From assembly GCA_964587005.1 (NCBI GenBank), contig CAZPJW010000004.1:1-33231 (forward strand): DNA of 33,231 nucleotides, given 5' to 3'. The position numbers and the translations under genes were made by a program. A model generated the notes under the pieces. The model was not told where the DNA came from, did no database searches, and worked only from the letters and a program-made list of their open reading frames with translations. The stretch's first letter is position 1. Each line of letters opens with the position of its first letter. Positions 2,135 through 25,678 of this stretch are shown here, in pieces. This stretch comes from Candidatus Woesearchaeota archaeon. GTDB taxonomy: Archaea > Nanobdellota > Nanobdellia > SCGC-AAA011-G17 > PNOQ01.

Positions 2135-2352
2135 TACAATCCGGCCTCTTTCATAACTGCCTCAAAACTATGAATCTTTCCTTCCTTAACTTGTCTTTCA
2201 GCCAGTTCCAACCTTTTTCTAGTCTGCTCAGATAATTCAGTAGTATCTTCAATTAAATCCCAAATTACTTCCTCATAAGTTTCCTTATCAAAAAGTTTCC
2301 TTTTAGTCAACTCTTTTTGTAAATCCTGACTAACTTGTATTGTGGTTGCCAT
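2134..2352 (-). CDS. antitoxin of the RelE toxin (archaeal RelB-like)
   Basis: MATTIQVS..L.KEL...K..DKETYEEVIWDLIE N-terminus and EGKIHSFEAVMKE C-terminus; directly upstream of and overlapping relE; start taken at MATT (2352). Confidence 0.8.
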   Translation of the reverse strand: MATTIQVSQDLQKELTKRKLFDKETYEEVIWDLIEDTTELSEQTRKRLELAERQVKEGKIHSFEAVMKEAGL

Positions 2353-2365
2353 ATTCAACTATAGT

Positions 2366-2420
2366 GGGCTATATTATATAAAGCTTTCCCTCAAGGGTAT
2401 TCGTAAGCTTTATAAACGGT
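2366..2420. promoter_or_regulatory. back-to-back divergent TATA-like promoters (TA operon on -, surface protein on +)
   Basis: TTATATAAAGCTT ... AAGCTTTATAAA quasi-inverted arrangement between two divergent starts. Confidence 0.45.
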
Positions 2421-2469
2421 TCACAACTCCAGAATAATAACATTAATAATCACTAAGGAGGGTTAAAGA

Positions 2470-3747
2470 ATGAATACATACGTTAAATTGCTAGCAATTT
2501 TGTTACTTTTTGCAGGTATGAGCATGCCAGCAGCAATAGCTGACGACAATGGCGATATTGATGATATCTCTTTCGAGAGCATTAAAATCGACGATATTTG
2601 GTATGATTTAGACGGCTCTGTTATTCCTACAGGTCCGTTTTATGCCGGTGAAAAAGTCCACGTTAAAGTTAACTGGGAATCTCTTTTAGATGAAGAGGAA
2701 TCCATGTCAGTTACACTTAAAGTGGAACTAGGAGATGACTTAGAAGAAGAAACTGAAGAGTTTACAGTGAGATACGAATGGACAGATACTGAATCTTTTG
2801 TATTTACTTTGCCAAGAGATATGGATCCCGGATTCTACAACCTTCATCTTGAATTTGAAGATGAACACGGAAACCGAAACACATATGGCGGAGAAATACA
2901 ATTGGAAGTTTCAAACCAAAAGCACTACGTAGAAATCTACGATGTTAACTTTAGACACGGTCTATCAGTTGATGCTGGTGAAACACTTTTTGTTTCTGTT
3001 GGCGCTAAAAACGTCGGACACGAAATGGAAGAAGATATTAAAATAAGTATATCTATACCAGAACTTGGTTTATACCAAAAATCAAACAGATTTGATCTAT
3101 GCACTGAAGAATACGTAGATAATCAAGACGAAGAATGCTGCGATGACGATGATGAATACAAAATCTACAAAGATCTTTACTTAACAATCCCTGCAGACAC
3201 TGTTTCAGGTGTTTACGATTTGATTGTAAGTTTAGACTACGATGATGATGACGAAGTAGAAGAAGAAGTTTACAGCATTGTTGTTGGTAGAGGAGCTTCA
3301 CCTACAGATACTGTTATTAGTATTGACAAAACATCCCAAACCTTTGCACAAGGTAGTGGCGTTGCTTATACAGTAATGTTTCCTACAGATTCTGGATACT
3401 CAGTTAAAGTAGAAGGTATCGGAGATTGGGGAACTTACAGAGTTGATGGAAATGAAGGACAAGCCTACATTTTCGTTTCAGCTAATGAAGGCGCTTCAAC
3501 TGGAAGCTATCCGTTTACGGTTAAGGTTATGGCTGGTTCCGCAGTAGTTAAAGAATTTGATTTGACTGCAAACGTAACAAAATTTGCACAAGGTACTTCA
3601 ACAGATATTAAAGAAGGCCTACAAATTGGATTCGCTATTTTGCTGGTTATCTTAATAATTCTAGGAATAATCCTGGCAGCTAAGAAAATCGGCAAATCAA
3701 ACGACTATGAAGAATCTTTGATGGACGAAGGCGAAACTTATTACTAA
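2470..3747 (+). CDS. secreted acidic surface/S-layer-like protein with CARDB/Ig-like domains and C-terminal TM anchor
   Basis: Signal peptide; Ig-like patterns (V.AKNVG...E.DIKISISIPELG, IPADTVSGVYDLIV); C-terminal hydrophobic helix; SD GGAGGG at 2457-2462. Confidence 0.75.
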   Translation: MNTYVKLLAILLLFAGMSMPAAIADDNGDIDDISFESIKIDDIWYDLDGSVIPTGPFYAGEKVHVKVNWESLLDEEESMSVTLKVELGDDLEEETEEFTVRYEWTDTESFVFTLPRDMDPGFYNLHLEFEDEHGNRNTYGGEIQLEVSNQKHYVEIYDVNFRHGLSVDAGETLFVSVGAKNVGHEMEEDIKISISIPELGLYQKSNRFDLCTEEYVDNQDEECCDDDDEYKIYKDLYLTIPADTVSGVYDLIVSLDYDDDDEVEEEVYSIVVGRGASPTDTVISIDKTSQTFAQGSGVAYTVMFPTDSGYSVKVEGIGDWGTYRVDGNEGQAYIFVSANEGASTGSYPFTVKVMAGSAVVKEFDLTANVTKFAQGTSTDIKEGLQIGFAILLVILIILGIILAAKKIGKSNDYEESLMDEGETYY

Positions 3748-3748
3748 A

Positions 3749-3768
3749 TTTTTCTTTTTTTCTTTTTT
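3749..3768 (+). terminator. oligo-T tract, archaeal terminator-like
   Basis: TTTTTCTTTTTTTCTTTTTT directly after the stop at 3745-3747. Confidence 0.6.
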
Positions 3769-3884
3769 AAATTCTTTAAAAACCCTTTATAAAAAATATT
3801 TACTCTATTACAATAATTATACTACAATTTTATTTATAAGTCGCCCGTGTATCCCATTTTAGTAACAAAAAGGAGGGTTCTACC

Positions 3885-6482
3885 ATGGGTAGTAAAAAAA
3901 TCATAACATCAATAATAATATTACTAATATTGCCAATAGTACTGGCTCAAACTTTTACTTTATACGAGAGTTCTCAACCAGGACCATTATGTCCGGGTTC
4001 AACAGGAATATACACAGACACAATAGAAAATACGGGTACTGGACCACTATCATTATCTATATCAACATCTGGTTCTGCATCATCATTCTCAACTAGTGTA
4101 CCATTAAGTATGACTTTAATTCCGGGACAAACAAAAAATATATACACATATGTAACTCCTAGATCAACAACAACTCCAGGAATTTATTCTTTAAGAGTTA
4201 TGGCAGATGCAAACGGAGAAACAAGAGAACTAACACACGATATACTAATCAAAGACTGTTATGAATTCACATTAGAAGCATTAGACATTCAAAAGAATAC
4301 TTGCCCATGTGAATCTGGAAAGTTTGAATTCCTATTAACTAATAATGGAGACTATACAGAATCCTATTCATTAGAAGTTGAAGGGGAGTATGCTTCAAAC
4401 ATAGTATTAAGCACTGATGAAATCACATTATCTCCAGGAGATGCGGATTATATATTTGCTTATGTAACAACTCCTTGTAATGATGTAGGTCAAAAAGACT
4501 TTACATTAAAAGCAACTTCACTAAACTCAGCAAGTACTCAAGCAGCAACTTCTACACTAGTAATAGACCCATGTTATGATTTTTCTATAACCACAGAAAG
4601 AGATCTAGTAAACACTTGTGAACACACACAAGAAACAATAGATGTAACAATCTCAAACTCTGGCTCAACAGCAAATGAGTATTCTCTAAACATAGACGGC
4701 CCATTATGGGCAAACTTAGAGAGAAACACATTAATAATAAACCCAAATTCACAAGCAACAACTACTCTTGTCCTAAACCCGGATTATGGCGTAGAGGGAA
4801 GCTTTGAATTGGACATGAGTGTACAACCAGACAAAGGGGAAGTAGTAGCACACCATTATTTCGATGTAAACATAAGGAAATGCCACGGCGTAACTTTAAA
4901 CATTGAAAAAGCAGAAGATAAGATGTGTAACTCCTTACAAAATACTTATGCAGTAAGTGTAATTAATACTGGGGATTATCCAAAAGAGTATTATTTTGCC
5001 ATAGATGGCCCACAATGGGCAACACTAGACAAAAACACAGCAACTCTTGGAATAGGAGAAGAAGAACAATTAACTCTAACAGTAAACCCTACTTTTGATA
5101 CTCCGGAAGCAGCTTATTCCATAAAGGTTCAAGCAATAGCAAAAGATTCATCTCAAGTAGCAAGCACGGATAAAATAGACATAACTACTGTTTCAAAAGA
5201 TGAATGCTATAAGGCGGTTCTAGGAATAGATCAAAAGAAAATAGATGTTTACTATGATTCAACCGCAACATTACCAATTGTAATAGAGAACAAGGGGGCA
5301 TATACAACATCTTATGACCTAGGTTTATCAGGAACAGCATCTAATTTCGTTTATTTAAACCCTGCAACAGTTGAAGTTAACCCTGGACAATCCGAGATAG
5401 TATACTTATACATTGCTCCATCAGGGCAAATAAAAAACGGAGACTACTCAGTTACAGTATCGGCTAGATTATCTGATTCATCCGTAATGGCTACAGAAAC
5501 GGTAGAGGTGATTGTTTCTGATAGTGGATACATCTCGCCAGAAGATCTAGAAAAAAGAGAATCAATATTTACAAAGATTATCAATTTCTTCAAAAATCTA
5601 TTCAAACCAACCCTTGAAGAACCAATAGACGAAGAAGAAATAGAAGAAATAATTGAAGAACCTATTATCGATGAAGAAACTATTGAAAACGAGACTATAG
5701 GTGAGGAAATAGAAGAAATAGAAGAAGAAGTTGAAGAAGTCATAGAAACTACTGAAAACGGTTTCATTCTAAACTTGGGAGAATCTGGAGAATTCATAAT
5801 CAAAGGAGAAACACACACATTAGAATTAACAGACATATCTGATGACACAATCTTAATAACTATTACTTCAGATCCAATCTTATTTACTATAGATGTAGGA
5901 GAATCAAAAGATGTAGACATGGACAACGACGGAGTTTATGATGTAAAAGTTACTTTTAATGGATATGTTGATGGGAAAGCAGATATTTCATACGAAGAGA
6001 TTTCAGAAGAAATAATTGAAGGACCGATTATCGATGAAGAAGTAACAGAAGAAGAATCTAGTGGAGAAGAAGAACCATTCTTTTCATCATTCTTTGGATC
6101 ACTAGGTTCAATCTTTACCGGAGCAGGAAGTTCCTTGGTAACTTACAAATATCACATAATTGGAATAATTGCAGTAATAATAATACTTTATTTAATCTTC
6201 AAGACAGGTTTCGGTAAAAAAATAGCCGAATTCTTTGAAGAAGAAATAGAAGAAGAAGATGTTCCGGTAGTTGACAAGAAAGAAGAACCAGAAGAACCAA
6301 AAGAGGAAAAACCTGCTAAGAAAAAAGAAGAGAGGCCCAAAAAAGCAACAAAGAAACCAAAGAAAGAGAAAACAGAAGATACGGAAGACGAAATTGAAAT
6401 AGAAGGGCTTGACGAAGAATCAAACAAAGAAGACTTCATCATAGAATTTGATGATGAAGACGAAGACAAAAAAAAGAAATAA
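3885..6482 (+). CDS. large surface glycoprotein-like protein with about 5 tandem NEW3/CARDB-like Ig repeats, acidic stalk, TM helix and charged tail
   Basis: Signal peptide; repeats of roughly 105 aa with N.G...Y.L...G and L.PG motifs separated by Cys pairs; E-rich linker; TM YHIIGIIAVIIILYLIF; SD GGAGGG at 3872-3877. Confidence 0.75.
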   Translation: MGSKKIITSIIILLILPIVLAQTFTLYESSQPGPLCPGSTGIYTDTIENTGTGPLSLSISTSGSASSFSTSVPLSMTLIPGQTKNIYTYVTPRSTTTPGIYSLRVMADANGETRELTHDILIKDCYEFTLEALDIQKNTCPCESGKFEFLLTNNGDYTESYSLEVEGEYASNIVLSTDEITLSPGDADYIFAYVTTPCNDVGQKDFTLKATSLNSASTQAATSTLVIDPCYDFSITTERDLVNTCEHTQETIDVTISNSGSTANEYSLNIDGPLWANLERNTLIINPNSQATTTLVLNPDYGVEGSFELDMSVQPDKGEVVAHHYFDVNIRKCHGVTLNIEKAEDKMCNSLQNTYAVSVINTGDYPKEYYFAIDGPQWATLDKNTATLGIGEEEQLTLTVNPTFDTPEAAYSIKVQAIAKDSSQVASTDKIDITTVSKDECYKAVLGIDQKKIDVYYDSTATLPIVIENKGAYTTSYDLGLSGTASNFVYLNPATVEVNPGQSEIVYLYIAPSGQIKNGDYSVTVSARLSDSSVMATETVEVIVSDSGYISPEDLEKRESIFTKIINFFKNLFKPTLEEPIDEEEIEEIIEEPIIDEETIENETIGEEIEEIEEEVEEVIETTENGFILNLGESGEFIIKGETHTLELTDISDDTILITITSDPILFTIDVGESKDVDMDNDGVYDVKVTFNGYVDGKADISYEEISEEIIEGPIIDEEVTEEESSGEEEPFFSSFFGSLGSIFTGAGSSLVTYKYHIIGIIAVIIILYLIFKTGFGKKIAEFFEEEIEEEDVPVVDKKEEPEEPKEEKPAKKKEERPKKATKKPKKEKTEDTEDEIEIEGLDEESNKEDFIIEFDDEDEDKKKK
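5642..6041 (+). repeat. 37-bp near-perfect direct repeat pair (5642-5678 and 6005-6041; 35/37 identical; 363 bp apart, in frame)
   Basis: AGAAGAAATAATTGAAG(A/G)ACC(T/G)ATTATCGATGAAGAA, aligned by hand. Confidence 0.85.
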
Positions 6483-7885: not shown

Positions 7886-10800
7886 TTACAATCTCAAGCT
7901 GGTAATCTTGCTAACCCCCTCATTCATTGAAACTCCATAAATTTGATGTGCCTCAGTAATAATAGAATCGTTGTGGCTAATAACAATATACTGAGCATTC
8001 CCAGAATAATTATGTATCAAACTAGATAACTTCTCAGAGTTATGTTTATCTAAAGCGGCATCCACTTCATCTAACAAATAGAAAGAAGCCGGATTATATT
8101 CTTGAATAGCAAAAATAAAAGCCAAAGCAGCCATTGTTTTTTCTCCACCACTTAAACTTCTAATATCTAATTTTTTACTTCCAGAAATTCTAACATTAAT
8201 ATCAACTCCTCCATCCAAAGGTTTTTCCTCATTATCCAAAACTAAAGAAGCCTCTCCTTTTGTAGAGATATTATTAAAAATCTCCTTAAATTTAGCATGT
8301 AAGTGGTTAAATGTTTTCATAAACACACCAGTTTTCTTCTCTTCAATCTCACCAATCAAAACTAAAACATCATCCTTCTCAGATTTTAATTTATTTGTTT
8401 TTCCAAGTAACACTTCATACTGGTTAGCCAATTCATCATAAACTTCTAACGCCCTCATATTTATGTTCCCAATATTATTCATCATCCTATCAAAATCAGA
8501 AATATCTTTCTTCAGAGATTCAATAGAAACTCCTTTTCTTATCTTCCCGCCCCTATACTCTTCAAATTCAACTTCCAAACCTTCAATTTCTCCAATAGCC
8601 TTAGCCAATCTAATAGAAACTTCATTTACTTTAGTTCTAATCAAATTAATTTTCTCCTCTTCCTTACCTATTCCTTCTTCTTTACTTCTCATAACTTCCA
8701 TTAATTTATTTCTCTTGGCAGCCAAAGACTTGTTCTTCCCATAAAATTCTCTTTCCTTTACTTCTTTCTCTTTCAAATTAGATTTTTTACCAGAAACAAC
8801 TTTATTCAGATCTACCATCTCCCTACTAAATTCTTCCTCTTCTTTATTATGTCCAGAAATAATCTCCTTAACCTTACCAATTTCAGAATTATACATATTT
8901 AACTGATTGTTCAGAATACTCAAATCAGAATTGATATTCATAATCTTCTCTTTCAACTTTTCTTTTTTACTTTCTAAAACGCCCAAATTGTCTTTAATCT
9001 CTGGGTTATTAATCAATTTTTCATTAATTTCACTCTTCTCTCTCTTTAATCCAGAAACTTCAAATTCAAATTTAGAATAATCCTTGTTGATAGTCTCAAA
9101 CTCTTTCTCAAATTCTAATTTCTTACTGCTTAATTCTTTTTTCTCTTTAATTATATCTCCAGAAGAACCAATTCCCAGAGATTTTTCAATCTTCACAATA
9201 TCCCCATACAACTCAGCCTTTTTATTCCTCAAAGATTCAATTTCGTGTTCAATTTCACTTCTTCTTTCCATATCTTCCTGTAAAGACTTATTTAACTTGC
9301 TTAATTCCCCTTCTAATAAAGAAACTTTCTCACCAATTTGTTTTTGATTGAACCCAACACCAGTTCTTCCTCTAAAACCACCAATCATCGCTCCAGAAGA
9401 TTCAACTAAATCTCCACCCAGAGTAACCATCCTAATTTTTCCAATTCCAATCTTCCTAGCAGTTTCTATGTCCTCAACAACCAAAGTGTTTCCAAAAACA
9501 TAATCAAACACATTCGAATATTTCTTATCAAAATTAACCAAATCGATAGCCAAACCATAAGCCCCATTTTTCTTTAATAAAGCAGAAACATTTTCTTTCT
9601 TTCGAGCCTTTATTTTATTTAAAGGCAAAAATGTAGCAACACCCAACTTATTATTCTTCAATTCTTTTATACAGTGCCCCGCAACAATATCGTCTTTTGT
9701 AACAACACTCTTAATCCTTCCGCCAGCTGCAACTTCCAAAGCCAAAGAATATTTCTCTTCAACATTTCCTAATTCAGAAACAGTACCAAAAACCCCATTG
9801 AACTTCTTAACCTTGTCAATACTCTTATTATTCAAAATTCCTTCCTTAATACCTACTTCTTTTGCTTTAAATTTACTTAATTCAGATTCTAATGAATTTA
9901 ATTTACTCCATCCTTCTCCAACTCTCCCAGAAAGTATAGAGTCTTCCCCTACAACTTTATTCAATTCTTTTTCAATAACACCATGTTTCTTTCTCAATTC
10001 CATTAAACTCTTAGAATTCTTACTCTCATTTAACCTATCTAGCTCTTTTTTTATACCATCTAATCTAAAATTAACCCTATCTAACTCTCTCACTAAATCC
10101 TGCTTAGCCTCGCCAGCACCATTAAGAAGCTTCTCTTTTTCTTCAATCTTTTTATCCAATTCAGATAATTTAACATTAATATCTCCCAAATTTTCAATAC
10201 CATATTTTTTTCTAAAACCAACCAATTTATTGTCAATATCTTTATCCTCCTCTTTAATCAGATTTATTTTTTTATTTAACCCAGCTTTCTCTTTATTCAA
10301 AGAAACAATTCTCTTTTCATTTTCAGAAATATCCCCCAATAATTGTTTTTTTCTATTCTTTATCTTCAACAATTCACTTTTAACAGTCTCAACTCTTGCC
10401 TCATGTTTGTACACTCCAGATTTCAAAGAACCAATCTCCATCTGAAGTAATTTTAATTCGCCTTCACCTTTCTGATCTAACTGATAATTAATTTCCTGAA
10501 TCTCATTTTGTTTTTCAGTTATAGAATTCCTAACATTCTTTATTTTATCTTGAATAACATCAATTTTTCCATTATGCTCATCTTGAATTTTTTGTATCTT
10601 ATCTCTTCTTTCTCTTCTCTCTTTCAATAGCAAATGAAGATAAGTAGCCTTAGAATCTTTAAACTTATTTTTCAAGTCAACATATTTTTTTGCTTGGTCT
10701 CTATCTTTCTTTAATTCTCTTAAATTAGCTTCCCTTTCAACTAACAAAACATTCGCTTCTGTTAACTTGCCCTCAACTTTCTCTAATTCCCTTAAAGATT

Positions 10801-11329
10801 TATTCTTTTTATCATCAAAAATAGAAATTCCAGAAATATCCGAAATCAATTCTCTTCTATCATTTGGTTTCATCTCCATAAAATGAACAATATCTCCCTG
10901 TAAAACAATATTATGCCCATCTGGGTCTATTCCAACTTTCCCAAGCAAATCAACAACTTGCTGCCTAGTATGTGTTTTATCATTAACTAAATATTTTGAT
11001 ACTCCTTTCTGATTCAAAACTCTAGAAACCTTTATTTCAGAACTGTTTAAAGGAAATTCATTCTTAGAATTATCAAAATAGATGTGTACTTCTGCTTTCT
11101 TAGAGGGTTGTCCTTTCTTTCCACCATTATAAATCAAATTAGCAGATTTTTCTGCCCTTAAACCCTTAGCAGAACTCTTACCCAAAACAAAACACAAAGC
11201 GTCCATAACATTGCTTTTTCCAGACCCATTGGGGCCCAAAATACAATTAAAATTATTTCCAAATAACAAATCGGTTTTCTTCGCAAAGGACTTAAAACCA
11301 GATGCTGATAGTTTAGTTATTACCGTCAT
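7886..11329 (-). CDS. smc: chromosome segregation protein SMC
   Basis: Walker A GPNGSGKSN, long coiled coils, hinge (GVFGTVSELG...GRIRMVTLGGD-like), signature LSGGEK, Walker B/D-loop LLDEVDAALD. Confidence 0.97.
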   Translation of the reverse strand: MTVITKLSASGFKSFAKKTDLLFGNNFNCILGPNGSGKSNVMDALCFVLGKSSAKGLRAEKSANLIYNGGKKGQPSKKAEVHIYFDNSKNEFPLNSSEIKVSRVLNQKGVSKYLVNDKTHTRQQVVDLLGKVGIDPDGHNIVLQGDIVHFMEMKPNDRRELISDISGISIFDDKKNKSLRELEKVEGKLTEANVLLVEREANLRELKKDRDQAKKYVDLKNKFKDSKATYLHLLLKERRERRDKIQKIQDEHNGKIDVIQDKIKNVRNSITEKQNEIQEINYQLDQKGEGELKLLQMEIGSLKSGVYKHEARVETVKSELLKIKNRKKQLLGDISENEKRIVSLNKEKAGLNKKINLIKEEDKDIDNKLVGFRKKYGIENLGDINVKLSELDKKIEEKEKLLNGAGEAKQDLVRELDRVNFRLDGIKKELDRLNESKNSKSLMELRKKHGVIEKELNKVVGEDSILSGRVGEGWSKLNSLESELSKFKAKEVGIKEGILNNKSIDKVKKFNGVFGTVSELGNVEEKYSLALEVAAGGRIKSVVTKDDIVAGHCIKELKNNKLGVATFLPLNKIKARKKENVSALLKKNGAYGLAIDLVNFDKKYSNVFDYVFGNTLVVEDIETARKIGIGKIRMVTLGGDLVESSGAMIGGFRGRTGVGFNQKQIGEKVSLLEGELSKLNKSLQEDMERRSEIEHEIESLRNKKAELYGDIVKIEKSLGIGSSGDIIKEKKELSSKKLEFEKEFETINKDYSKFEFEVSGLKREKSEINEKLINNPEIKDNLGVLESKKEKLKEKIMNINSDLSILNNQLNMYNSEIGKVKEIISGHNKEEEEFSREMVDLNKVVSGKKSNLKEKEVKEREFYGKNKSLAAKRNKLMEVMRSKEEGIGKEEEKINLIRTKVNEVSIRLAKAIGEIEGLEVEFEEYRGGKIRKGVSIESLKKDISDFDRMMNNIGNINMRALEVYDELANQYEVLLGKTNKLKSEKDDVLVLIGEIEEKKTGVFMKTFNHLHAKFKEIFNNISTKGEASLVLDNEEKPLDGGVDINVRISGSKKLDIRSLSGGEKTMAALAFIFAIQEYNPASFYLLDEVDAALDKHNSEKLSSLIHNYSGNAQYIVISHNDSIITEAHQIYGVSMNEGVSKITSLRL

Positions 11330-13776: not shown

Positions 13777-14115
13777 CTAATCTAAACTCTCTAAAGCTTC
13801 CTCTAAACTACCAAAGCTGCTTATGATATTGCTAATTTTGGTTACACTCAATTTCTTTTCTATTCTATCAGAAACATTACACAAAACTAATTTTGACTTC
13901 TCTCTACCCAACACATCATATGAGCCAGTAATAAATCCTAGCCCGTTAGTATTCATCCAAGGCACTTCTGCTAGATCTAAAACTACTCCCTTCCCATAAC
14001 TCTCCCTAATTAAATCATAATATTCCTTGCTTGGTTCCTCTACAAGCCTGCCTGTGAGCCTTACAATTATGACCCCCGGATGGTCTTTGGCCTTCACTAA
14101 TTCATAATTTTCCAT
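13777..14115 (-). CDS. STAS-domain (anti-sigma-factor antagonist-like) protein, 112 aa
   Basis: VVLDLAEVPWMNTNGLGFI, LVLCNVSDRIEKKLSVTKI and SLEEAL follow the SpoIIAA/RsbV pattern. Start moved to 14115 because the longer ORF runs through the tRNA. Confidence 0.8.
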   Translation of the reverse strand: MENYELVKAKDHPGVIIVRLTGRLVEEPSKEYYDLIRESYGKGVVLDLAEVPWMNTNGLGFITGSYDVLGREKSKLVLCNVSDRIEKKLSVTKISNIISSFGSLEEALESLD

Positions 14116-14166
14116 AATATATATAGTAGACAATATACTTAAAAAATTAACGATTTTCAGAAAGAA

Positions 14167-14241
14167 TAGCGGGAGACGGATTTGAACCGACGACCTCCGG
14201 GTTATGAGCCCGACGAGCACTCCAGACTGCTCCATCCCGCT
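14167..14241 (-). tRNA. initiator tRNA-Met (CAU), 75 nt, no intron, CCA not encoded
   Basis: Reverse complement AGCGGGATGGAGCAGTCTGGAGTGCTCGTCGGGCTCATAACCCGGAGGTCGTCGGTTCAAATCCGTCTCCCGCTA folds as a cloverleaf with A1:U72, three G:C pairs in the anticodon stem and a TTCAAAT T-loop. Confidence 0.96.
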
Positions 14242-14321
14242 GTAATATAAAAACAACTACAACCCATTTTTAAACCTTTCTAATCCAAAAACAATATAAA
14301 CCACAATTTTCAATTTTAAAC

Positions 14322-17901: not shown

Positions 17902-17910
17902 GGTTAACAC
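17902..17910. repeat. left target-site duplication GGTTAACAC
   Basis: Identical 9-mer at 22350-22358, directly outside each TIR. Confidence 0.95.
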
Positions 17911-17925
17911 GGCTTTGCACAATAA
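17911..17925 (+). repeat. left terminal inverted repeat GGCTTTGCACAATAA
   Basis: Exact reverse complement of 22335-22349; resembles the IS903 end GGCTTTGTTGAATAA (recalled). Confidence 0.95.
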
Positions 17926-17945
17926 GTCAAAGTTGCACAATAAGT
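17915..17945 (+). repeat. tandem 13-bp subterminal repeat TTGCACAATAAGT (17915-17927, 17933-17945)
   Basis: Two exact copies with an 18-bp period. Confidence 0.9.
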
Positions 17946-17952
17946 AAATTCA

Positions 17953-17966
17953 GAAAACTATAAAAA
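17953..17966 (+). promoter_or_regulatory. putative BRE/TATA promoter for the cargo genes
   Basis: GAAAACTATAAAAA ending about 23 nt upstream of ATG 17989. Confidence 0.5.
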
Positions 17967-17988
17967 GAATTAAGGGACTATTATTATT

Positions 17989-18747
17989 ATGAAAAAAAGA
18001 CTTGATATTTTAATAATAATTGTTTTGGTTTTATTTATCTCTGGTTGTGAAGTAGAATTACAAAAAAGTCCAGGAGAGTCAAATATAAACAATAACCCCT
18101 CTTTTTCTTTGCAAAATGCAGATAAAAATATTAAATTTAGCACTTCCAAGAATTTTTTACTTGAAACGAAAAAAGAAATAAAAACTGATGAGAGCAAGGA
18201 AGCCTTGTTATCTGGAATAGAAATTGAAAAAGAATCTATTGAGTTAGATTTGCCAAAAGAAGCTGTATATGGAGTTAGTGTTTCTGGGGGGTATGTTTTA
18301 TTTGGAAATAATGCGTTTGCTAGGGTTGTTTTGGTTGATTCTGATGATGTTGAATGGTTAATTTTTGGAACAGATCTCTTGTTCTTAGAAGGTTCAGATG
18401 TTTTTGATAATGTTTGTGATGAAACTTGCGTTTTTGATAAACCCATTATAATTAAAGAAATTAGAGTTGAAGGAACTGACTCTAATTTATTTCTGAATCA
18501 AATTAATTATAAAACTTCAAAAAGCTCTGAAAAGGCTAATGTTTTGAAAGAAAGGCAATATGATATTAAACTACAAAGATTACAAAATGAAATAAACTCT
18601 AAATCTTTATCTTGGACGGCAGGCGAAACTTCTGTTTCTAAAAAATATTACAGGGATTTGAAGAAATTATTTATTGGAAATGAGTTGGCTAATTTAAACG
18701 GATTTCAGTATTATAAGGGAGGGGTTTTTAAACTTGAAGATGATTAA
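17989..18747 (+). CDS. predicted lipoprotein with C-terminal C1A-protease propeptide-like segment (transposon cargo)
   Basis: Signal with lipobox-like ISG|C20; CDETC motif; C-terminal LQNEINSKSLSWTAGETSVS...LNGFQYYKGGVF resembles the segment preceding the mature domain in prokaryotic papain-like proteases (recalled). Confidence 0.65.
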   Translation: MKKRLDILIIIVLVLFISGCEVELQKSPGESNINNNPSFSLQNADKNIKFSTSKNFLLETKKEIKTDESKEALLSGIEIEKESIELDLPKEAVYGVSVSGGYVLFGNNAFARVVLVDSDDVEWLIFGTDLLFLEGSDVFDNVCDETCVFDKPIIIKEIRVEGTDSNLFLNQINYKTSKSSEKANVLKERQYDIKLQRLQNEINSKSLSWTAGETSVSKKYYRDLKKLFIGNELANLNGFQYYKGGVFKLEDD

Positions 18748-20995
18748 AAAATTATTATTAATCTTCTTATTTTTGATCCCTCTGGTTAGTGCAGAATATA
18801 TTGCCCCATATCCGGATGAATTAGATTATCGTGATTTTCAAGGTCAGAATTGGATGACTTCTGTAAAAAATCAAGAAGAATGTGGTTCTTGTTGGGCATT
18901 TGCTACAAATGCAGTTTTAGAAAGTTACATTAATCTATATTACAACCAACTTGTAAATGAAGATCTTAGCGAACAAGAACTTGTTTCTGATTGTTGTACC
19001 GATTGTGGTAGTTGTTCTGGGGGTCTTCCTAGCAATGCCCTATATTATATAGAAACTAACGGAGTTGTAACTGAATCTTGTTTTCCTTATGAAGCTCAAA
19101 ATTCGGCCTGTAACCTATGCCCTAATCACGATGATGTAACTTGGATATTTAATTCTGAAGAAAGAATATTTCAAGAACAACAATATATCAAAACATTTTT
19201 AGTTACAAATGGACCATTGCCCATGATTATAGACACTTGGAACCATGCAGTCGCACTTTCTGGGTATGAAAAAAACGATTCTGAAGATATTTGGATATTC
19301 AAGAATTCATGGGGTGAAGATTGGGGAGAAGATGGATATGGATATATTAGTGAACCAATAAATTTTCCACACAATATTTATTTTAGGGATTATGTCAGCG
19401 AAATTGTAAATTCTCCTAATCCAAATAATATTAATTGTTTAGATGGGGATGGAGATGATTATTGTTATTGGGGAATAACTGAGTCAATGCCGGGTTCTTG
19501 CCCCGGGATTTGCCTTTCATACAAAGATGAAGATGATTCCAATCCAAATATATACAAAGAAATGGATTTGTGGATTAGTGATTATGATGTACCAGAAAAA
19601 ACAAAAATAGATGAGATGAAGCATTATAGAATTTATGTTAATTATAAAGGGAATAATGAAAATCAAGTTATAAATAATGTTGAAGTTAATCTATACGTTG
19701 ATGGATCCCTACTCCAAGGAGAAGTTATTCCAAGTTTAAATGATGGTGAAACTTACCTTGTTGATTTTATATTAGACCCAAATGGATTTTATGAACCTTA
19801 TTTTAATAATAAATTTAGGTGGGAAATAGTTCCAAAGACTGGAGAAATAAATACTGAAAATAATTACTTGGAAAATGATGTTTGGGTTTATAATTATGAT
19901 AATGGATTTATCATAAGTGAATCTGGATATGTTTTTGATTGTTATTCAAACAATAATCCAGAGGGGCACCAAATTGAAGCTATTGTGGGTCCGAAGGGAG
20001 GGGAAGGAATCTCTTCTAGTTATACTAATTCCATAGAAATAAAAAATTGTTTAATGGGTGGCTGGTATAAGGACATTTATCTAGATCACGTTGAAAATAG
20101 TTTAGTGCAGAATAATCGACTTGGAGATGGATCTGGTTTAGGGATTTGGCTTTATCATTCCAATTATAATAATCTAACTCAAAATAGCCCAATACAGGAT
20201 AGCAATGGCCAAGGCATATTTTTAGAATATTCTAATCACAACGAAATTTCAGACAACATAATCCAATATACAGATTATGACTGTGTTGGATTGGATAATT
20301 CAGATAATAATCATATCCTCCACAATCTTATAAAAAATTGTTATTATGATGGTTTGTATCTCTTTAATTCTAGCGCTAATTTAATAGAGGGTAATGCAGT
20401 CCATGAGAATCGCCGAAAAGGAATTGCTTTAACATTTGGTGAAGAAAATACACTGTTTGATAATAATGGTTACAATAATCTTAACTTTTTTATTTTGTTA
20501 TACGGCTCAGAAAATAACCATATACTTAACAATTGGAATCAAGGTATGTATGGAGGGTTAGCTATATACTCTTCAAATGATTATGGTTATACATTTCCTT
20601 CAAGATATAATGAAATATCTGACAATATAATGTGTCAATTTAGAGATTATGAAGAAGGCTATTATCTTGACTTTTCTTGCCAAGAAGCAGATACTTTTGG
20701 GAACTATGGAGACCATAATAAATTTGGATACTATCTACCACCCTATGACCCTTATGCAGTGTGGGAATGTGAGGATGGATGGCCAGAACACGAAATTAAT
20801 TATTATGCTTGTAATCAATGTAGTGATGGAACTCTTGAAGAAGAATGTTCTGAGAATATGCCAAAGTATTGTTTAAATAGAAACTTAATAAATAATTGCC
20901 AAGAATGTGGCTGTCCAGTTGGATATTCTTGTAAATCAGATGGGTCTTGTCAAAGAAAACAAGGAACTAAATACAGACCAATGCAAGCAGTATAA
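18734..20995 (+). CDS. secreted papain-like cysteine protease (C1A) with CARDB-like domain, NosD/parallel beta-helix repeats and C-terminal Cys-rich module (transposon cargo)
   Basis: Signal peptide KKLLLIFLFLIPLVSA; Q..CGSCWAF (Cys 18890-18892), NHAV (His 19244-19246), KNSWG (Asn 19304-19306); EQELVSDC; N-rich GI.L..S..N.I..N repeats; SD GGAGG at 18718-18722. Confidence 0.92.
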   Translation: MKMIKKLLLIFLFLIPLVSAEYIAPYPDELDYRDFQGQNWMTSVKNQEECGSCWAFATNAVLESYINLYYNQLVNEDLSEQELVSDCCTDCGSCSGGLPSNALYYIETNGVVTESCFPYEAQNSACNLCPNHDDVTWIFNSEERIFQEQQYIKTFLVTNGPLPMIIDTWNHAVALSGYEKNDSEDIWIFKNSWGEDWGEDGYGYISEPINFPHNIYFRDYVSEIVNSPNPNNINCLDGDGDDYCYWGITESMPGSCPGICLSYKDEDDSNPNIYKEMDLWISDYDVPEKTKIDEMKHYRIYVNYKGNNENQVINNVEVNLYVDGSLLQGEVIPSLNDGETYLVDFILDPNGFYEPYFNNKFRWEIVPKTGEINTENNYLENDVWVYNYDNGFIISESGYVFDCYSNNNPEGHQIEAIVGPKGGEGISSSYTNSIEIKNCLMGGWYKDIYLDHVENSLVQNNRLGDGSGLGIWLYHSNYNNLTQNSPIQDSNGQGIFLEYSNHNEISDNIIQYTDYDCVGLDNSDNNHILHNLIKNCYYDGLYLFNSSANLIEGNAVHENRRKGIALTFGEENTLFDNNGYNNLNFFILLYGSENNHILNNWNQGMYGGLAIYSSNDYGYTFPSRYNEISDNIMCQFRDYEEGYYLDFSCQEADTFGNYGDHNKFGYYLPPYDPYAVWECEDGWPEHEINYYACNQCSDGTLEEECSENMPKYCLNRNLINNCQECGCPVGYSCKSDGSCQRKQGTKYRPMQAV

Positions 20996-21019
20996 TCTGT
21001 ATTTTCTTTTATAGAAACA

Positions 21020-21048
21020 TTTATATACTATTTACACATAATATATGT
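21020..21048 (+). promoter_or_regulatory. TATA (TTTATATA) plus inverted repeat ACATA-ATA-TATGT, candidate RHH operator
   Basis: TATA-like 21020-21027 and palindrome 21036-21048 upstream of the RHH gene (SD AAGGAGGA 21073-21080). Confidence 0.45.
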
Positions 21049-21085
21049 ACTATAATTAATAAATAATACATAAAGGAGGAATAAG

Positions 21086-21253
21086 ATGAGCAAAAAGATT
21101 GTTGTAACCCTACCAGATGAAACTTATAAGTTAATGAAGAACTTAGATGGTATGGGAGAAAAGGATGGAGAAAAAGTTAGAAATTTGGTGATAGCTTGGA
21201 TGGCTGAGAAAAGTATGATCTCTACCTCTGCAAAGGAGAAAATGAAAAAATAA
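21086..21253 (+). CDS. CopG/ribbon-helix-helix DNA-binding protein, 55 aa (MSKKIVVTLPDETYKLMKNLDGMGEKDGEKVRNLVIAWMAEKSMISTSAKEKMKK)
   Basis: Below the ORF-track cutoff; strong SD; beta-strand KIVVTLP followed by two helices, RHH-like. Confidence 0.75.
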   Translation: MSKKIVVTLPDETYKLMKNLDGMGEKDGEKVRNLVIAWMAEKSMISTSAKEKMKK

Positions 21254-21266
21254 ATTATAATTAATA

Positions 21267-21282
21267 GGAGCCCGAAGGCTCC
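21267..21282 (+). promoter_or_regulatory. GC-rich hairpin GGAGCC-CGAA-GGCTCC 11 nt upstream of the transposase ATG
   Basis: Perfect 6-bp stem with a 4-nt loop in otherwise AT-rich intergenic DNA. Confidence 0.6.
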
Positions 21283-21293
21283 AAGGATTTAAA

Positions 21294-22334
21294 ATGCCCC
21301 GCAAAGAACAAATTAAACCCATAGAAGATTATCAAGAAGAGTATAAAAAATTAACTGAAAATGGTAAATATAGTCAAGTTTGGGAAGAATACAATAAGGC
21401 TCAAACAAAAGAGAAATTACTTTTCTATAGACTTCTTAATGAACTTTTAGATATACTTCCAGAGAGAGAATACACATTTGGTAGACCAAGAAAATCTTTG
21501 AGAGATATGATATTCTGTTGTATGATAAAAATTTACAACAATACTTCTTCAAGAAGAATAATTTCTGATTTAGAACTTGCAAAGAAAGCTGGTTATATTG
21601 AACAAGTTCCACATTTTAATACATTATTAAATTATTTTGATGATGCAGGTATGTGGGTTATCTTGAACTATTTAATTAAAATCTCTGGACTTCCATTAAA
21701 GCAAGTTGAAGAGGCTTTTGCAGTTGATGCTTCTGGTTTTGGAACTGGAAGATTTGATAGATGGGTAAATGTTAGGAATAAATCAGGAAAACCAAGAAAG
21801 GGATTTGTAAAGGCACATATTTGTTGTGGAGTTAAAACTAATATCGTAACTGCAGTTGAAATAACGAGGGAGAATGTTCATGATAATGTTTTATTTGGTT
21901 CTCTTGTAGACAAGACTCATAGTAATTTTTATATGAAAGAACTTTCTGCAGATAAAGCTTATTCTTCTAGGGATAATCTTGAATTAGTAAACCAATTAGG
22001 AGCAATGCCTTTTATTCCGTTTAAGAAAAATGTAACTGGGAAATCTAGAGGGTCTCCAACTTGGGCTAAAATGTATAAGATTTTTGCTACAAAATATATA
22101 GAATTTGCCGAGCATTATCACAAACGTTCTAATGTAGAAACTGTATTTTCAATGATAAAAAAGAAATTCGGAGATAACGTAAGGTGTAAATCGTTACGTA
22201 GTCAAACAAATGAAGTTTTGTGTAAGATACTTTCCCATAATTTGGTAGTTTTAATTCACGAATTATTTGAACTTAAAATAGATATAAATTTTGATGAAAT
22301 CTCGAAAAATCACCCTGCACAAAAAGTGGTCTAG
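21294..22334 (+). CDS. tnp: DDE transposase, IS5 family (DDE_Tnp_1-like)
   Basis: AVDASG, VKAHI, ADKAY and YHKRSNVETVFSMIK give the D, D and E residues with an IS903-like YH.RS..ET motif; ORF intact; stop abuts the right TIR. Confidence 0.92.
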   Translation: MPRKEQIKPIEDYQEEYKKLTENGKYSQVWEEYNKAQTKEKLLFYRLLNELLDILPEREYTFGRPRKSLRDMIFCCMIKIYNNTSSRRIISDLELAKKAGYIEQVPHFNTLLNYFDDAGMWVILNYLIKISGLPLKQVEEAFAVDASGFGTGRFDRWVNVRNKSGKPRKGFVKAHICCGVKTNIVTAVEITRENVHDNVLFGSLVDKTHSNFYMKELSADKAYSSRDNLELVNQLGAMPFIPFKKNVTGKSRGSPTWAKMYKIFATKYIEFAEHYHKRSNVETVFSMIKKKFGDNVRCKSLRSQTNEVLCKILSHNLVVLIHELFELKIDINFDEISKNHPAQKVV

Positions 22335-22349
22335 TTATTGTGCAAAGCC
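22335..22349 (-). repeat. right terminal inverted repeat
   Basis: TTATTGTGCAAAGCC is the reverse complement of the left TIR. Confidence 0.95.
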
Positions 22350-22358
22350 GGTTAACAC
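22350..22358. repeat. right target-site duplication GGTTAACAC
   Basis: Identical to 17902-17910. Confidence 0.95.
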
Positions 22359-22360
22359 CT

Positions 22361-23803
22361 CTACTTCTTTTTTGGAGCAAAAATTATTACTAATAACACA
22401 ACAAATACAGCTAAAAATAAAACACCAAAAACATAAGACCTATTTAAACTGAAATTCTCTCCAAATCCTTTATCCGCACTATATTCACCACTACTTGGAT
22501 CTCCAAAGATATAATCAAAGAATCCTTTATCTTCAGACTCTTCACTTGCTAAACCAATTGATTCCAAACAACATACTTGGCTTTCTCCTATATAATATTC
22601 ACACTCTTCATCTAGATACTCTATGTCTGGAGAGATATAATCTCCACTACATTCACTAGCCATACAGGTTCCATTATAATGGGTACAATCATTAACATCA
22701 TCATTTTCATACGGGTAACAACAAACTTCACTAGCACCATATTCTTCTACACAACTATCTGTTAATTGTTCATATCCCTCTAAATCACTAACATCATAAA
22801 ATCCTTCACCACATTGTCCCTCACATTCTCCACCAACATATTCGCAATAATTGTCTTCCTCGTCTCCTTCTCCAGAAGTTTCTTCACCATTATCAGTAAG
22901 TCCTAATGTACAACTTCCATCTTGGTTACATTGGTATCCATCTGGGCAAAATTCATAAGGGATTTCACAAGACTGGCACGATTCAACCAAAACCATATCA
23001 TCCCCACTTTGCTGACATTTATATCCATAATACTCTTCTGATAAAGAACATTGGCCAGGCAAAGTGCCATCAATACATTCGGTATCTTTTGGTGCTTCGT
23101 AAGGGTTACATTGTCCAGTACTCGGATCAAAAGGATCTTCCTGGCAGATGTAGTTTTCAGTACATGCACCATCAATAGGACCAACACCATCTTCACAATC
23201 GCCCAGTTCTTGGCAACTTTCAAATTCATCATTCATAACCCTATATCCAAACTCTTCTAAATAGGTAGAAGAACAAAAATCATCACCCTCAATAGAATCT
23301 TGACATTGACCACAATTATCTCCAGCATCATAATCATCTTCATAGCAATTATCACTTGTTTCTGGAATATTTACTAACGCCCCATCCTTATCAACACATA
23401 ATTCAGAAGTGCCACATTGCCAATGTCCAGAACAATAATCCTCTCCTGGCGGATTTGGATCGCCACCCTCATCTCCGTATCTGGAACAAGAAACACCATC
23501 TTGATTACACTCCCATGGGGGGTTACATCCGCACTCATCACAATTATCTACAATAGAACATTCTGGTGGATCACCTTTTGGCAAACAATATTTAGGTCGA
23601 TCCCAAGATAAACAAGAGCCGCCTCCAACCGTATAACCCTGGTCGGTACAACTACAACCAATTTGAGGTAGTGGGGCCAATCCCTGAATTACTTCTTTAT
23701 TTTCATCATAAAACGAAACTACAAACATAACACCCAAAATAACTAAAACAACAATAAGAATAGCCTTCAAATTCCCTCTTTTCATCATACCGTCTATTTT
23801 CAT
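22361..23803 (-). CDS. Cys-rich acidic surface protein with N- and C-terminal TM segments
   Basis: Two hydrophobic ends; two CGCP-type modules; two C-x6-C-x3/4-C-xn-C-x9-CC repeats. Confidence 0.75.
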   Translation of the reverse strand: MKIDGMMKRGNLKAILIVVLVILGVMFVVSFYDENKEVIQGLAPLPQIGCSCTDQGYTVGGGSCLSWDRPKYCLPKGDPPECSIVDNCDECGCNPPWECNQDGVSCSRYGDEGGDPNPPGEDYCSGHWQCGTSELCVDKDGALVNIPETSDNCYEDDYDAGDNCGQCQDSIEGDDFCSSTYLEEFGYRVMNDEFESCQELGDCEDGVGPIDGACTENYICQEDPFDPSTGQCNPYEAPKDTECIDGTLPGQCSLSEEYYGYKCQQSGDDMVLVESCQSCEIPYEFCPDGYQCNQDGSCTLGLTDNGEETSGEGDEEDNYCEYVGGECEGQCGEGFYDVSDLEGYEQLTDSCVEEYGASEVCCYPYENDDVNDCTHYNGTCMASECSGDYISPDIEYLDEECEYYIGESQVCCLESIGLASEESEDKGFFDYIFGDPSSGEYSADKGFGENFSLNRSYVFGVLFLAVFVVLLVIIFAPKKK

Positions 23804-23827: not shown

Positions 23828-25678
23828 TTAAATTGGATCATCCTGGCCAGGCCAGTGTTCTGTAAATCGAATCAAGGGAGATCTTTTCTCCATACATCTC
23901 CCTAGGCTACATCCGTATAAACAATATACTTCACTAGCATCTACTCCTTCATCTCCACAAAACCATTCAAGTAAATACTGGCCATTACACTCGTCAGTGT
24001 ATTCACCATAATCGTCTACAAGTGTTCCCCTCTCCCAAATATTAAAACCACCATCACTATCTTCACAATATGGTGGCAATGAAGTTATGGTAACATATTG
24101 AAGATTACTTTCATTTTCATTCCCAACACTATTTATTGCCTTACTTTTAATAGTATAATCTCCCCCACCAATTTCATTAAAGATAAATTCATACAATTCT
24201 TGGGCAGAGTCAAAGATATCATCCTTGGCACCAGTATTAAACCAGTCACTCCAAGGCTCTTCCTCAAGTTGATAACTATAAACAACATTTCCAATTGTAT
24301 TTATTGAGATATCATTGTAATATGGGTTTATTGCAGGGAAGATATTAATTGAAGCATTACCATCAAAATAAAATCCAAGTTCATCTTCAATTCCCTCATT
24401 CAACCAAATGTCTGGAAAAGTATCTTGGATATCTAAAATACCATTCCCATCACTATCTTGCCAACCAACTTGCCCCCTTGCATATTCATCAATTAATCCC
24501 TGGGGAAATGCTTCGGTTGGATATTTCATTATTGAAATTTCATCAAGTAAACATTCATTTATACAATTCTGGTTTTCATAATATAGGTATCCTCCATGAG
24601 AAGTGCAAGTACAAGAACCATACTCATCTCTTGCCCCAAAGATATGGCCAGTCTCATGAGCACAAACTGAGTCCATATTTTCAATACCATAATTTCCATT
24701 ATCATAGGTCATCACAGAATAAGGGCCACCCCCACTTCCATCATCATGAACAACTGTGAAAGCAAAACTTCCATCATAGTCAAAAGCCCCATCTACATCT
24801 TCACTAGAATCAACAACAAATATGACAAATCCCCACTCAGCCTCTCCCCTATGGTCGTTCACATATTCAAAAACAAAGGGAGTGCAATCCGAGCCATCAG
24901 GCGAATATCCTAAGTGCTCCAAATTATCATTTATCCAGAAACATCTTCCAGCGTTAGATGAAGAACCCGGCCCCCAGATAGGCTCATATTCTGTAGGGAT
25001 CATTTCCTCAAAATTATAGTCAAAGGTCAAATGGGAGCCATTCTCACGAAGCACCCACCAATCCATGGCTAAAAAAATTTCATCTTTAACATTTTGAATT
25101 TCCTCACCAGTCCAATCCTCTTGATCTGGGCCATACTGAGTGCAAGCGGGGAGATCTAAACAAACTGTCTCATCACTCTCCGGAAAAATCACAGAAACAG
25201 AAACATCTCCAATCATAAATGAACTAGTATCGGTGGCATCAGCACCTTCAGGAATTCCTCTAGGAACAATCTGCAAATCATCCAAACTAGGTTTTTCAAT
25301 CATAATAACATCATCATAAATCGGCTCAACATCAGGAATATTAGCTAATTTCTCAGCCAAAGGCATTCTCTTATAATCCAAACTTCTAGTCCAAGAAGTA
25401 AAAACACTAGAATACTTTGAAGGAACATTGGAATTTTCATAATAAACTTTTCCCCTATAATTAGAAGGAATATCTCCAATCAAAACACCATCATCAGAAA
25501 AAATGTGTCTCACTCTTCCACCCAAACTTTCAATTTCATCTCTAGCAGAATAAACATCATCGGATACAACAAAACCCTCTCTAACATTAAAAGAATACTT
25601 TGGTTCTGCATAACACCCAGACACAGCTAAAATAAGTCCCAAAACGGCTACTAATATGATTGAATTTGTTTTTTTCAT
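23828..25678 (-). CDS. secreted zinc metalloprotease (metzincin-like HExxHxxGxxD) with pro-region, Ig-like domain and Cys-rich tail
   Basis: Signal/lipobox VSGC; AHETGHIFGARDEY (HETGH at 24644-24658); SIMKY Met-turn-like; CEDSDGG...EWFC...C..GC..G.C tail. Confidence 0.8.
   Translation of the reverse strand: MKKTNSIILVAVLGLILAVSGCYAEPKYSFNVREGFVVSDDVYSARDEIESLGGRVRHIFSDDGVLIGDIPSNYRGKVYYENSNVPSKYSSVFTSWTRSLDYKRMPLAEKLANIPDVEPIYDDVIMIEKPSLDDLQIVPRGIPEGADATDTSSFMIGDVSVSVIFPESDETVCLDLPACTQYGPDQEDWTGEEIQNVKDEIFLAMDWWVLRENGSHLTFDYNFEEMIPTEYEPIWGPGSSSNAGRCFWINDNLEHLGYSPDGSDCTPFVFEYVNDHRGEAEWGFVIFVVDSSEDVDGAFDYDGSFAFTVVHDDGSGGGPYSVMTYDNGNYGIENMDSVCAHETGHIFGARDEYGSCTCTSHGGYLYYENQNCINECLLDEISIMKYPTEAFPQGLIDEYARGQVGWQDSDGNGILDIQDTFPDIWLNEGIEDELGFYFDGNASINIFPAINPYYNDISINTIGNVVYSYQLEEEPWSDWFNTGAKDDIFDSAQELYEFIFNEIGGGDYTIKSKAINSVGNENESNLQYVTITSLPPYCEDSDGGFNIWERGTLVDDYGEYTDECNGQYLLEWFCGDEGVDASEVYCLYGCSLGRCMEKRSPLIRFTEHWPGQDDPI

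Follow-up and report, generated by a model that had tools for sequence, protein, structure and literature searches.

The question raised by this locus is whether a gene for a secreted protease can travel as the cargo of a single transposase and, if so, whether such a vehicle is exceptional. In the 33,231-nucleotide stretch of contig CAZPJW010000004.1 analyzed here (the window), the segment from 17911 to 22349 carries one insertion sequence (IS)-type transposase gene together with three further genes, among them those for a lipobox protein and a papain-family protease. It is very likely that this unit is an autonomous, noncomposite DNA transposon, that is, a transporter IS (tIS), moved by its single IS5-family, IS903-like DDE transposase. 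It is also highly probable that the element belongs to a broad clade present in DPANN archaea, other archaea, and some bacteria, with cargo that is mostly restriction-modification genes in the clade at large and secreted proteases in this marine subclade.

Boundaries and insertion site of the element

The limits of the unit were set by a 15-bp inverted end, GGCTTTGCACAATAA, with two exact occurrences in the window: the left terminal inverted repeat (IRL) at 17911 to 17925 on the plus strand, located by an exact match search, and the right one (IRR) at 22335 to 22349 on the minus strand, which begins directly after the transposase stop codon. No further copy was found in the window at up to 3 mismatches. 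Abutting the outer edge of each inverted end is a 9-bp direct repeat, GGTTAACAC (17902 to 17910 and 22350 to 22358), also present exactly twice in the window; two copies arose in 0 of 100 dinucleotide-preserving shuffles. The enclosed 4,439 bp hold four open reading frames (ORFs), all on the same strand. No second transposase was found within the element, and the closest internal match to the 20-nucleotide end, with 5 mismatches, is the subterminal repeat at 17929.

In a Woesearchaeota-like archaeon, the element entered the gap that separates the stop codon of a gene for a secreted protein from the promoter of psmB, which encodes the proteasome beta subunit. The site lies in a 71-bp intergenic spacer, with the stop codon of a 480-amino-acid Cys-rich membrane protein on one side and promoter-like sequence of psmB on the other, and the B recognition element (BRE)/TATA-like sequence AAAAAACTTATAAAT upstream of psmB remains joined to that gene despite the insertion. 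A metagenome scan queried with the 480-residue flanking protein yielded contig L129, with the same gene order as the window and amino acid identities of 77% for a 616-residue protein, 64% for the 480-residue homologue, 91% for psmB, 91% for aCPSF1, and 86% for a Na/Ca exchanger. The L129 spacer is without the element and reads ...GAAGTAGAG-GTGTTAACC-AAAAAACTTATAAATGA..., with the target 9-mer present once; it is identical to the window flanks minus the element and minus one copy of the duplication. The site is likewise empty in L131, a more distant relative. Because the L129 site matches the flanks minus the element and one repeat, the whole 4.4-kb unit, cargo included, arrived in one event. 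The element thus has the properties of a transporter IS or unit transposon, with one transposase, one pair of ends, no flanking IS copies, and insertion as one piece.

Six independently assembled contigs of the site differed from the window by 0 to 1 single-nucleotide polymorphism (SNP) or by one 3-bp in-frame indel, and the duplication was kept in all of them. Since these contigs agree in structure, a chimeric assembly was excluded. Variation within the element among the six assemblies was limited to the 3-bp in-frame indel and one SNP, at window positions 19040 and 19023, both in the C1 domain of the protease. A sequence-only reading of the window had described perfect 15-bp terminal repeats and a 9-bp direct repeat around 4,439 bp, had taken the segment for a single unit rather than a composite of two ISs, and had predicted the empty site; on each of these points it agrees with the results above, and the chimeric assembly that it named as a possible refutation was excluded.

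Copies were sought by exact-protein look-up of the transposase, psmB, and the 252-amino-acid cargo protein in JGI, ENA, and Logan samples. The same filled site was present on every long-enough contig with an identical transposase, psmB, or 252-residue protein (about 13 to 17 contigs), and an exact look-up with the TTG-start form of the protease gave no match. Synonymous divergence (dS) between the window and the empty-site lineage ranged from about 0.5 (psmB) to 1.0 (aCPSF1). The insertion is younger than the split from that lineage, with no tighter bound, because perfect repeats of only 15 and 9 bp do not allow finer dating. One contig of the site, L004, stops precisely at the final base of the right repeat, a break that hints weakly at repetition or polymorphism.

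Transposase, ends, and cargo

The transposase gene (21294 to 22334, plus strand) encodes a 346-amino-acid DDE protein of the IS5 family, IS903-like in type, with the catalytic residues D145, D220 (in DKAY, an instance of the N3 motif D(1)G/A(Y/F)), and E282 and the sequence Y275-(2)-R278-(3)-E282-(6)-K289. The pattern Y-(2)-R-(3)-E-(6)-K is the signature of IS4 and IS5 transposases. In an alignment of 24 sequences, D145, D220, Y275, E282, and K289 were invariant and R278 was nearly so. The Pfam model DDE_Tnp_1 matched with 81 bits against a cutoff of 23, and the best NCBIfam model, NF033579, was aligned over positions 3 to 288 of 289 with 133.1 bits. Reference scores of 387 bits for ISVa2 and 409 bits for ISAha3 identify NF033579 as an IS903-group model; two relatives of the window element described below, L117 and L081, scored 115 and 117 bits. 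Many relatives of about 400 amino acids have an N-terminal SWIM zinc finger (PF04434), which the window transposase lacks.

The IS903-group reference elements, ISVa2/ISVal1 and ISAha3, were analyzed directly from their sequences. Ends beginning GGCTTTG are a textbook feature of IS903-type elements, and the ends of both references are GGCTTTGTTG. The ISVa2-type element on pVPA3-1 is 1,054 bp long with ends GGCTTTGTTGCGTAATTC, and ISAha3 is 1,039 bp long with ends GGCTTTGTTGCA and the 9-bp duplication GCCTTTAGT. The 1,054-bp ISVa2-type element, with 18-bp repeats, has been placed in the IS903 group of the IS5 family (PMC5633605). Ends beginning GGCTTTG, a 9-bp duplication, a YREK-type DDE transposase, and a match to NF033579 over its full length are common to the window element and the group (ISVal1/ISVa2, ISAha3, and IS903), in line with the initial assignment of the ends and duplication to this type. 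In size and gene content the two differ: the group is defined as compact ISs of about 0.95 to 1.15 kb with the transposase as sole gene, and its classical members are 1.04 to 1.06 kb long with a single ORF, whereas the window element is 4,439 bp long and has three extra genes, four in all. A search of a plasmid collection matched only classical IS903-group elements, at about 24 to 27% identity.

The motif TGCACAAWAAGT occurs twice at each end of the window element, as direct copies on the left and as inverted copies on the right. By end-motif comparison, the left end consists of the terminal copy GGCTTTGCACAATAAGT, whose transposase-site core TTGCACAATAAGT lies at 17915 to 17927 (plus strand), and a second copy of TTGCACAATAAGT in direct orientation at 17933 to 17945 (plus strand), the presumed inner transposase-binding site. 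At the right end, the terminal site is accompanied by the copy CTGCACAAAAAGT at 22315 to 22327 (plus strand), inverted relative to IRR. This asymmetric layout is conserved across archaeal and bacterial relatives, in nearly all of the 33 delimited elements, and the inner motif covaries with the terminal motif between GCAC-type and GTTT-type elements. The recurrence of the layout and this covariation point to transposase-binding sites. The transposase would recognize the GGCTTTGCACAATAA termini plus one copy of the subterminal motif at each end, and the whole 4.4-kb segment would be inserted at staggered cuts 9 bp apart, the repair of which would leave the GGTTAACAC duplication. IS903 has been reported to use more than one transposition pathway (PMC7986276).

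A TATA-like box, CTATAAAA (17958 to 17965, plus strand), is centered about 27 nucleotides upstream of the first cargo start codon, within the conserved left 87 bp. Archaeal TATA boxes usually lie about this far from the transcription start. The left 87 bp are 89.7% identical in the closest relative, L010, where they stand ahead of a different protease gene. Position and conservation suggest that the left end supplies an inward-facing promoter for the cargo that follows it; the two-gene cargo operon of the window element is probably transcribed from this box, and its transcript is probably leaderless or has a short leader.

Cargo gene 1 (17989 to 18747, plus strand), defined by its ORF and by homologue alignment, encodes a 252-amino-acid protein with the lipobox LFISGC. 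Among its homologues the lipobox Cys is invariant and the C-terminal tail nearly so. An AlphaFold2 model (mean predicted local distance difference test [pLDDT] score of 56) predicts a beta-sandwich core at residues 80 to 175, with the tail at low confidence. The only Pfam match was a subthreshold one to Propeptide_C1 (PF08127; E = 0.06 to 0.13, 13 bits against a cutoff of 32.7) in 3 of 11 homologues. A profile search against the PDB found no procathepsin for this protein, and Foldseek with the model returned generic beta-sandwich matches only. A membrane-anchored, propeptide-like chaperone or inhibitor is a possible lead for its function.

Cargo gene 2 (18740 to 20995, plus strand) encodes a predicted secreted papain-family cysteine protease of 751 amino acids, or 753 with an alternative TTG start at 18734. 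The Pfam model Peptidase_C1 (PF00112) matched with 128.6 bits against a cutoff of 20.7, a NosD/beta-helix region is also present, and the sequence has the catalytic-type residues Cys51 (CGSC51W), His169 (NH169A), and Asn189 (N189SWG). A signal peptide is likely cleaved after VSA, and a C-terminal Cys-rich module, found also in the L010 cargo, starts at about 20810. It is very probable that the gene encodes a cysteine protease that is secreted or associated with the cell surface; host S-layers and other such targets are speculative. The reading frames of the two cargo genes share 8 nucleotides (14 with the TTG start), and a GGAGG-like motif lies within the upstream gene, which together suggest translational coupling.

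Between the protease and transposase genes lies a conserved 55-amino-acid gene (21086 to 21253, plus strand), a putative small DNA-binding regulator. Its product is 100% identical in L010 and has 2 substitutions in L009, with a ratio of nonsynonymous to synonymous divergence (dN/dS) of about 0.015. The AlphaFold2 monomer (pLDDT 66) has an extended N terminus and two helices, compatible with a ribbon-helix-helix (RHH) protein and not specific to it. No Pfam, NCBIfam, or PDB sequence match and no Foldseek match with E < 1 was found, and the RHH assignment is therefore unproven; the rest of the gene content first proposed, comprising a lipobox lipoprotein, a C1 protease, and an intact DDE transposase, stands. 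Between the 55-residue gene and the transposase gene is a perfect palindrome, GGAGCCCGAAGGCTCC (21267 to 21282, plus strand), that is invariant in the window, L009, L010, and L021 amid variable noncoding bases, in elements whose transposases are 71 to 93% identical to that of the window. It may be an operator of the 55-residue protein or an RNA hairpin limiting transposase expression; gene and palindrome together probably regulate expression of the transposase.

Relatives and probable exchange of cargo

Database homologues of the transposase numbered 5,126 at E ≤ 1e-5, some of them possibly from other IS5 groups. Eighty loci in species-representative genomes were surveyed. Their archaeal sources were Woese-, Pace-, Micr-, and Aenigmatarchaeota, Thermoplasmata, Methanomicrobia, and Hadesarchaea, and the bacterial ones included Pyrinomonadaceae, Trueperaceae, and Ktedonobacteraceae. 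Elements were delimited by inverted ends (up to 4 mismatches in 15) with an exact 9-bp duplication outside them. About 31 distinct GGCTTTG-type elements were delimited in this way, or 33 with L009 and L117, ranging from 2,856 to 10,154 bp (median, 5,214 bp) with the transposase at the right end in all. Of the 13 genome loci in the subclade of the window element (at least 62% identity), 11 could be delimited, and these measured 2.9 to 10.2 kb. A relaxed search of the undelimited loci gave more long elements, or right ends whose left partner lay off the contig, the shortest candidate being about 2.3 kb. No IS of roughly 1.2 kb was found in the 80 genome loci even under the relaxed criteria, and no cargo-free relatives were found in two multicontig metagenomic lineages. 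Cargo is the norm in this transposase clade, and every delimited member carries passengers. The expectation that IS903-type elements are about 1 kb long and encode the transposase only, correct for classical members, thus fails in this clade, with its 33 elements of 2.9 to 10.2 kb.

The recurrent cargo families were mostly DNA methyltransferase and restriction genes. C5 DNA methylases were found in 8 elements and N6/Eco57I/MmeI-type methylase-endonucleases in 6 to 7; other recurrent cargo comprised D12, EcoRI-type, and N4/N6 methylases, Eco47II, Vsr, and HNH nucleases, and Schlafen/AlbA_2 proteins. A DNA methyltransferase was carried by at least about 15 of the 31 elements. A further 120 cargo ORFs were singletons, which indicates that the cargo is passenger DNA rather than transposition machinery. 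A small gene beside the transposase also recurs: the 55-residue gene in the window, L009, L010, and L021, and an antisense ORF of 45 to 80 amino acids, Zn-ribbon or MazE/AbrB-like, in other subclades. The 10.2-kb member at L026:45-10198 (the same contig as L011), with duplication ATAAAAACC, carries a 1,436-amino-acid protein and an ADP-ribosylglycohydrolase/HEAT protein; L012 has the same transposase end and different downstream genes.

Repeated mobility was seen in two relatives. In a Trueperaceae genome, a 3,040-bp element is present in two copies with the duplications GGCGGGACG and AACCAGACC (L081 and L083, each at 7945 to 10984), and in a 7.5-kb marine element the right flank in L132 is not the one in L133/L137. 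Other copies with different duplications, a check proposed in the sequence-only reading, were found for a relative and not for the window element. Both Trueperaceae copies encode a P63C-domain protein as well as one with an IS1595-type zinc ribbon. On a viral-classed contig (L139:7066-10990; IMGVR_UViG_3300022860_000148) lies a bounded member of 3,925 bp with duplication CTTTCTGTA, and 11 further relatives are on IMG/VR contigs. Viral contigs are a possible vehicle for cell-to-cell transfer of the family, host flanks on these contigs being the other possibility.

Three relatives bear on the movement of proteases. In L009, whose transposase is 84% identical to that of the window (dN/dS, 0.08), a 4,832-bp element (L009:416-5247; duplication ATAAGGATG) begins, immediately after the left end, with a gene for a Trypsin_2 protease; next come plasmid-type genes of the MJECL33/32 kind, whose name refers to an extrachromosomal element of Methanocaldococcus. 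Just beyond the right end of the L009 element is a NosD/beta-helix gene. L010 (L010:3666-6729) is the closest relative, with a transposase 93% identical but cut after 239 codons and followed by unrelated sequence, and is a decayed or interrupted copy. In addition to the first 87 bp, it shares with the window, at 88.7% identity, a stretch from the interior of the protease Cys-rich module through the 55-residue gene to the transposase. Between the shared stretches it encodes a 558-amino-acid lipobox protein with the metzincin motif HELGHNFGAEH, the final 70 residues of which are 65% identical to those of the window protease. Cysteine, metallo-, and serine-type proteases thus stand behind the same left end in three close elements, which suggests selection for exchangeable extracellular proteases.

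The third relative carries the protease pair itself. In L117 and L118, the pair lies inside another family member, with identities of 73% and 58% for the proteins and 74% for the DNA over 2.37 kb. The L117 element is 4,580 bp long (717 to 5296), with 20-bp perfect ends, GGCTTTGCATATAAACTAAT, and duplication TGTTTTATA, and its transposase is 48% identical to that of the window and in the opposite orientation. It adjoins, about 360 bp upstream, the apparent 5' end of an archaeal 16S rRNA gene (L117:~5650-5917). Comparison of these sequences indicates that the protease module has been taken up by, or exchanged between, two divergent transposons. The pair also occurs chromosomally in two lineages (L120 to L126) without a transposase or end motifs. 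The 252-residue protein has 12 database homologues only, and in 3 of 3 contexts examined the homologue lies directly upstream of a C1 plus NosD protease. The sequence-only reading had proposed that such elements spread secreted proteases, an idea that gains support from the presence of the same pair in the window element and L117 and from the metzincin-like and trypsin-like proteases of L010 and L009, the two closest relatives. Cargo is probably exchanged by recombination within two shared regions, the left end and the C-terminal Cys-rich module. The Cys-rich module is also found in the host's own neighboring secreted proteins.

Alternatives, known systems, and genomic surroundings

Three other accounts of the segment were weighed. 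The inverted ends and direct repeats might be chance matches or the product of a chimeric assembly of unrelated contigs, and the AT-rich composition of the window (about 30% GC) does favor short repeats. The shuffling result, the empty site found in L129 exactly as predicted, the agreement of six independent assemblies, and dozens of relatives with the same end sequence and 9-bp duplications make this account vanishingly improbable. In another account, a short IS of about 1.35 kb, made up of the 55-residue gene and the transposase, lost or bypassed its own left end and mobilized host DNA once by means of a fortuitous end, as ISEcp1/IS1380-type modules do. The small size of classical IS903-group elements, about 1.05 kb with one ORF (PMC5633605), would fit such an origin, and the occurrence of the protease pair as a plain chromosomal module in related genomes implies that it was once captured from host DNA. 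No end-like sequence was found beside the 55-residue gene or the transposase, however, and the far-left end has the full family architecture, which in most of the 33 relatives covaries with that of the right end. In L010, the same left end of 87 bp stands ahead of different cargo, and a cargo-less relative was found in 0 of 80 genome loci and in neither of the two multicontig lineages. A one-time capture of this kind is very unlikely.

Less improbable, but still unlikely, is that the element entered once and is now a fixed, immobile relic: an island of protease genes in the chromosome whose transposase is decaying or has been domesticated. Its single-copy state, with the element present on every long-enough contig that has the identical flanking gene and no polymorphic empty site found in that population, agrees with that account, as do repeats too short for dating and a nearest empty-site lineage as distant as dS of about 0.5 to 1.0. 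On the other side, the transposase frame, the catalytic residues, and both ends are intact, and the transposase and the 55-residue gene are under strong purifying selection between elements; the assembly break of L004 at the right end, typical of repeated or polymorphic DNA, adds only a hint.

The interpretation as an autonomous, IS903-like transporter IS is itself weakened by several points. Neither a second copy of the exact element nor a polymorphic empty site in the same population was found by exact-protein look-up in the JGI, ENA, and Logan contigs, and current activity is therefore unproven. The description of the element as recently active was accordingly not upheld: it is single copy, occupies the same filled site on all of its contigs, and is bounded in age only by the dS values above. 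The survey counted only elements with a perfect 9-bp duplication, and roughly half of the 80 loci stayed undelimited. The promoter, operator, and binding-site roles were assigned from position and conservation only. The transposase scores below the 140-bit cutoff of NF033579 and is only about 24 to 25% identical to classical IS903-group members. Because of this identity, the subcutoff score, and the fourfold length, the window element is best treated as belonging to a sister lineage of the IS903 group rather than as a member. It differs from the group further in its extra 55-residue partner gene, in the duplicated subterminal motif at each end, and in its archaeal host.

Both the transporter IS and the unit transposon are recognized categories (PMC9330008, PMC7986276). 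The window element shares with the former the arrangement of one IS-type transposase and one pair of ends around passenger genes that are movable only with the element. Described tISs are occasional members of otherwise cargo-free IS families, such as a single IS6-family member with one hypothetical passenger gene (PMC7986276), whereas here 1.5 to 9 kb of cargo is present in every delimited member of the clade. Tn3-family unit transposons are likewise noncomposite and carry passengers, sometimes with element-borne promoters (PMC9330008); unlike them, the window element has no Tn3-type TnpA, resolvase, or res site, makes a 9-bp rather than a 5-bp duplication, and is smaller. The transposable modules (TMo) of the IS1380/ISEcp1 type also move adjacent genes by a single IS copy, but they do so through surrogate ends, and the length of DNA moved differs between events, in contrast to the conserved, inherited left end of the window element, with its family architecture of presumed binding sites. 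Krupovic et al. 2019 (PMC6563490) named composite DNA transposons with passenger genes among the bacterial classes that had not been detected in archaea.

The sequence-only reading knew of no archaeal IS5 element with protease cargo, and none was found in the literature: the searches turned up no archaeal tIS of the IS5/IS903 type, no report of such elements with a protease as cargo, and no largely archaeal IS5/IS903-type lineage with cargo in every delimited member. ISfinder and TnCentral lay outside the comparison, and an existing entry for the element is possible, which tempers its novelty. The chances are about even that a large, undescribed sister clade of the IS903 group, with obligatory cargo, a left-end promoter, doubled binding sites, and a regulator gene, is a main vehicle by which secreted hydrolases and restriction-modification systems move between archaea, DPANN and others, and also reach some bacteria and viral genomes. 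In DPANN archaea, which are host dependent and have tiny genomes, the exchange of surface and defense genes is poorly known. A one-transposase vehicle with 1.5 to 9 kb of cargo offers a concrete mechanism for such exchange, and its easily recognized ends provide a marker with which archaeal metagenomes can be searched for mobile cargo. Few genetic tools exist for archaea, and the compact ends with their single transposase could be developed into one.

The genes neighboring the element are archaeal housekeeping genes, encoding the ribonuclease aCPSF1, the proteasome beta subunit, SMC, and RNase HII. The named relatives of aCPSF1 are proteins from Woesearchaeota/Nanoarchaeota metagenome-assembled genomes, with identities of up to 83%, and the DPANN label given to the host from the sequence alone is reasonable. 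The insertion locus is a cluster of extracellular-protein genes. The flanking genes at 22361 to 23803 and 23828 to 25678, both on the minus strand, encode Cys-rich secreted or membrane proteins, and the 616-residue flanking protein has a HETGH metalloprotease-like motif with weak Reprolysin matches. The 480-residue flanking gene and the cargo protease gene have in common a stretch of Cys-rich module coding sequence, present as an inverted repeat. Elsewhere in the window, a tRNA-Met gene (14167 to 14241, minus strand) overlaps the mechanically called ORF at 13777 to 14256, and the true upstream gene is probably the shorter STAS-domain ORF called in L001.

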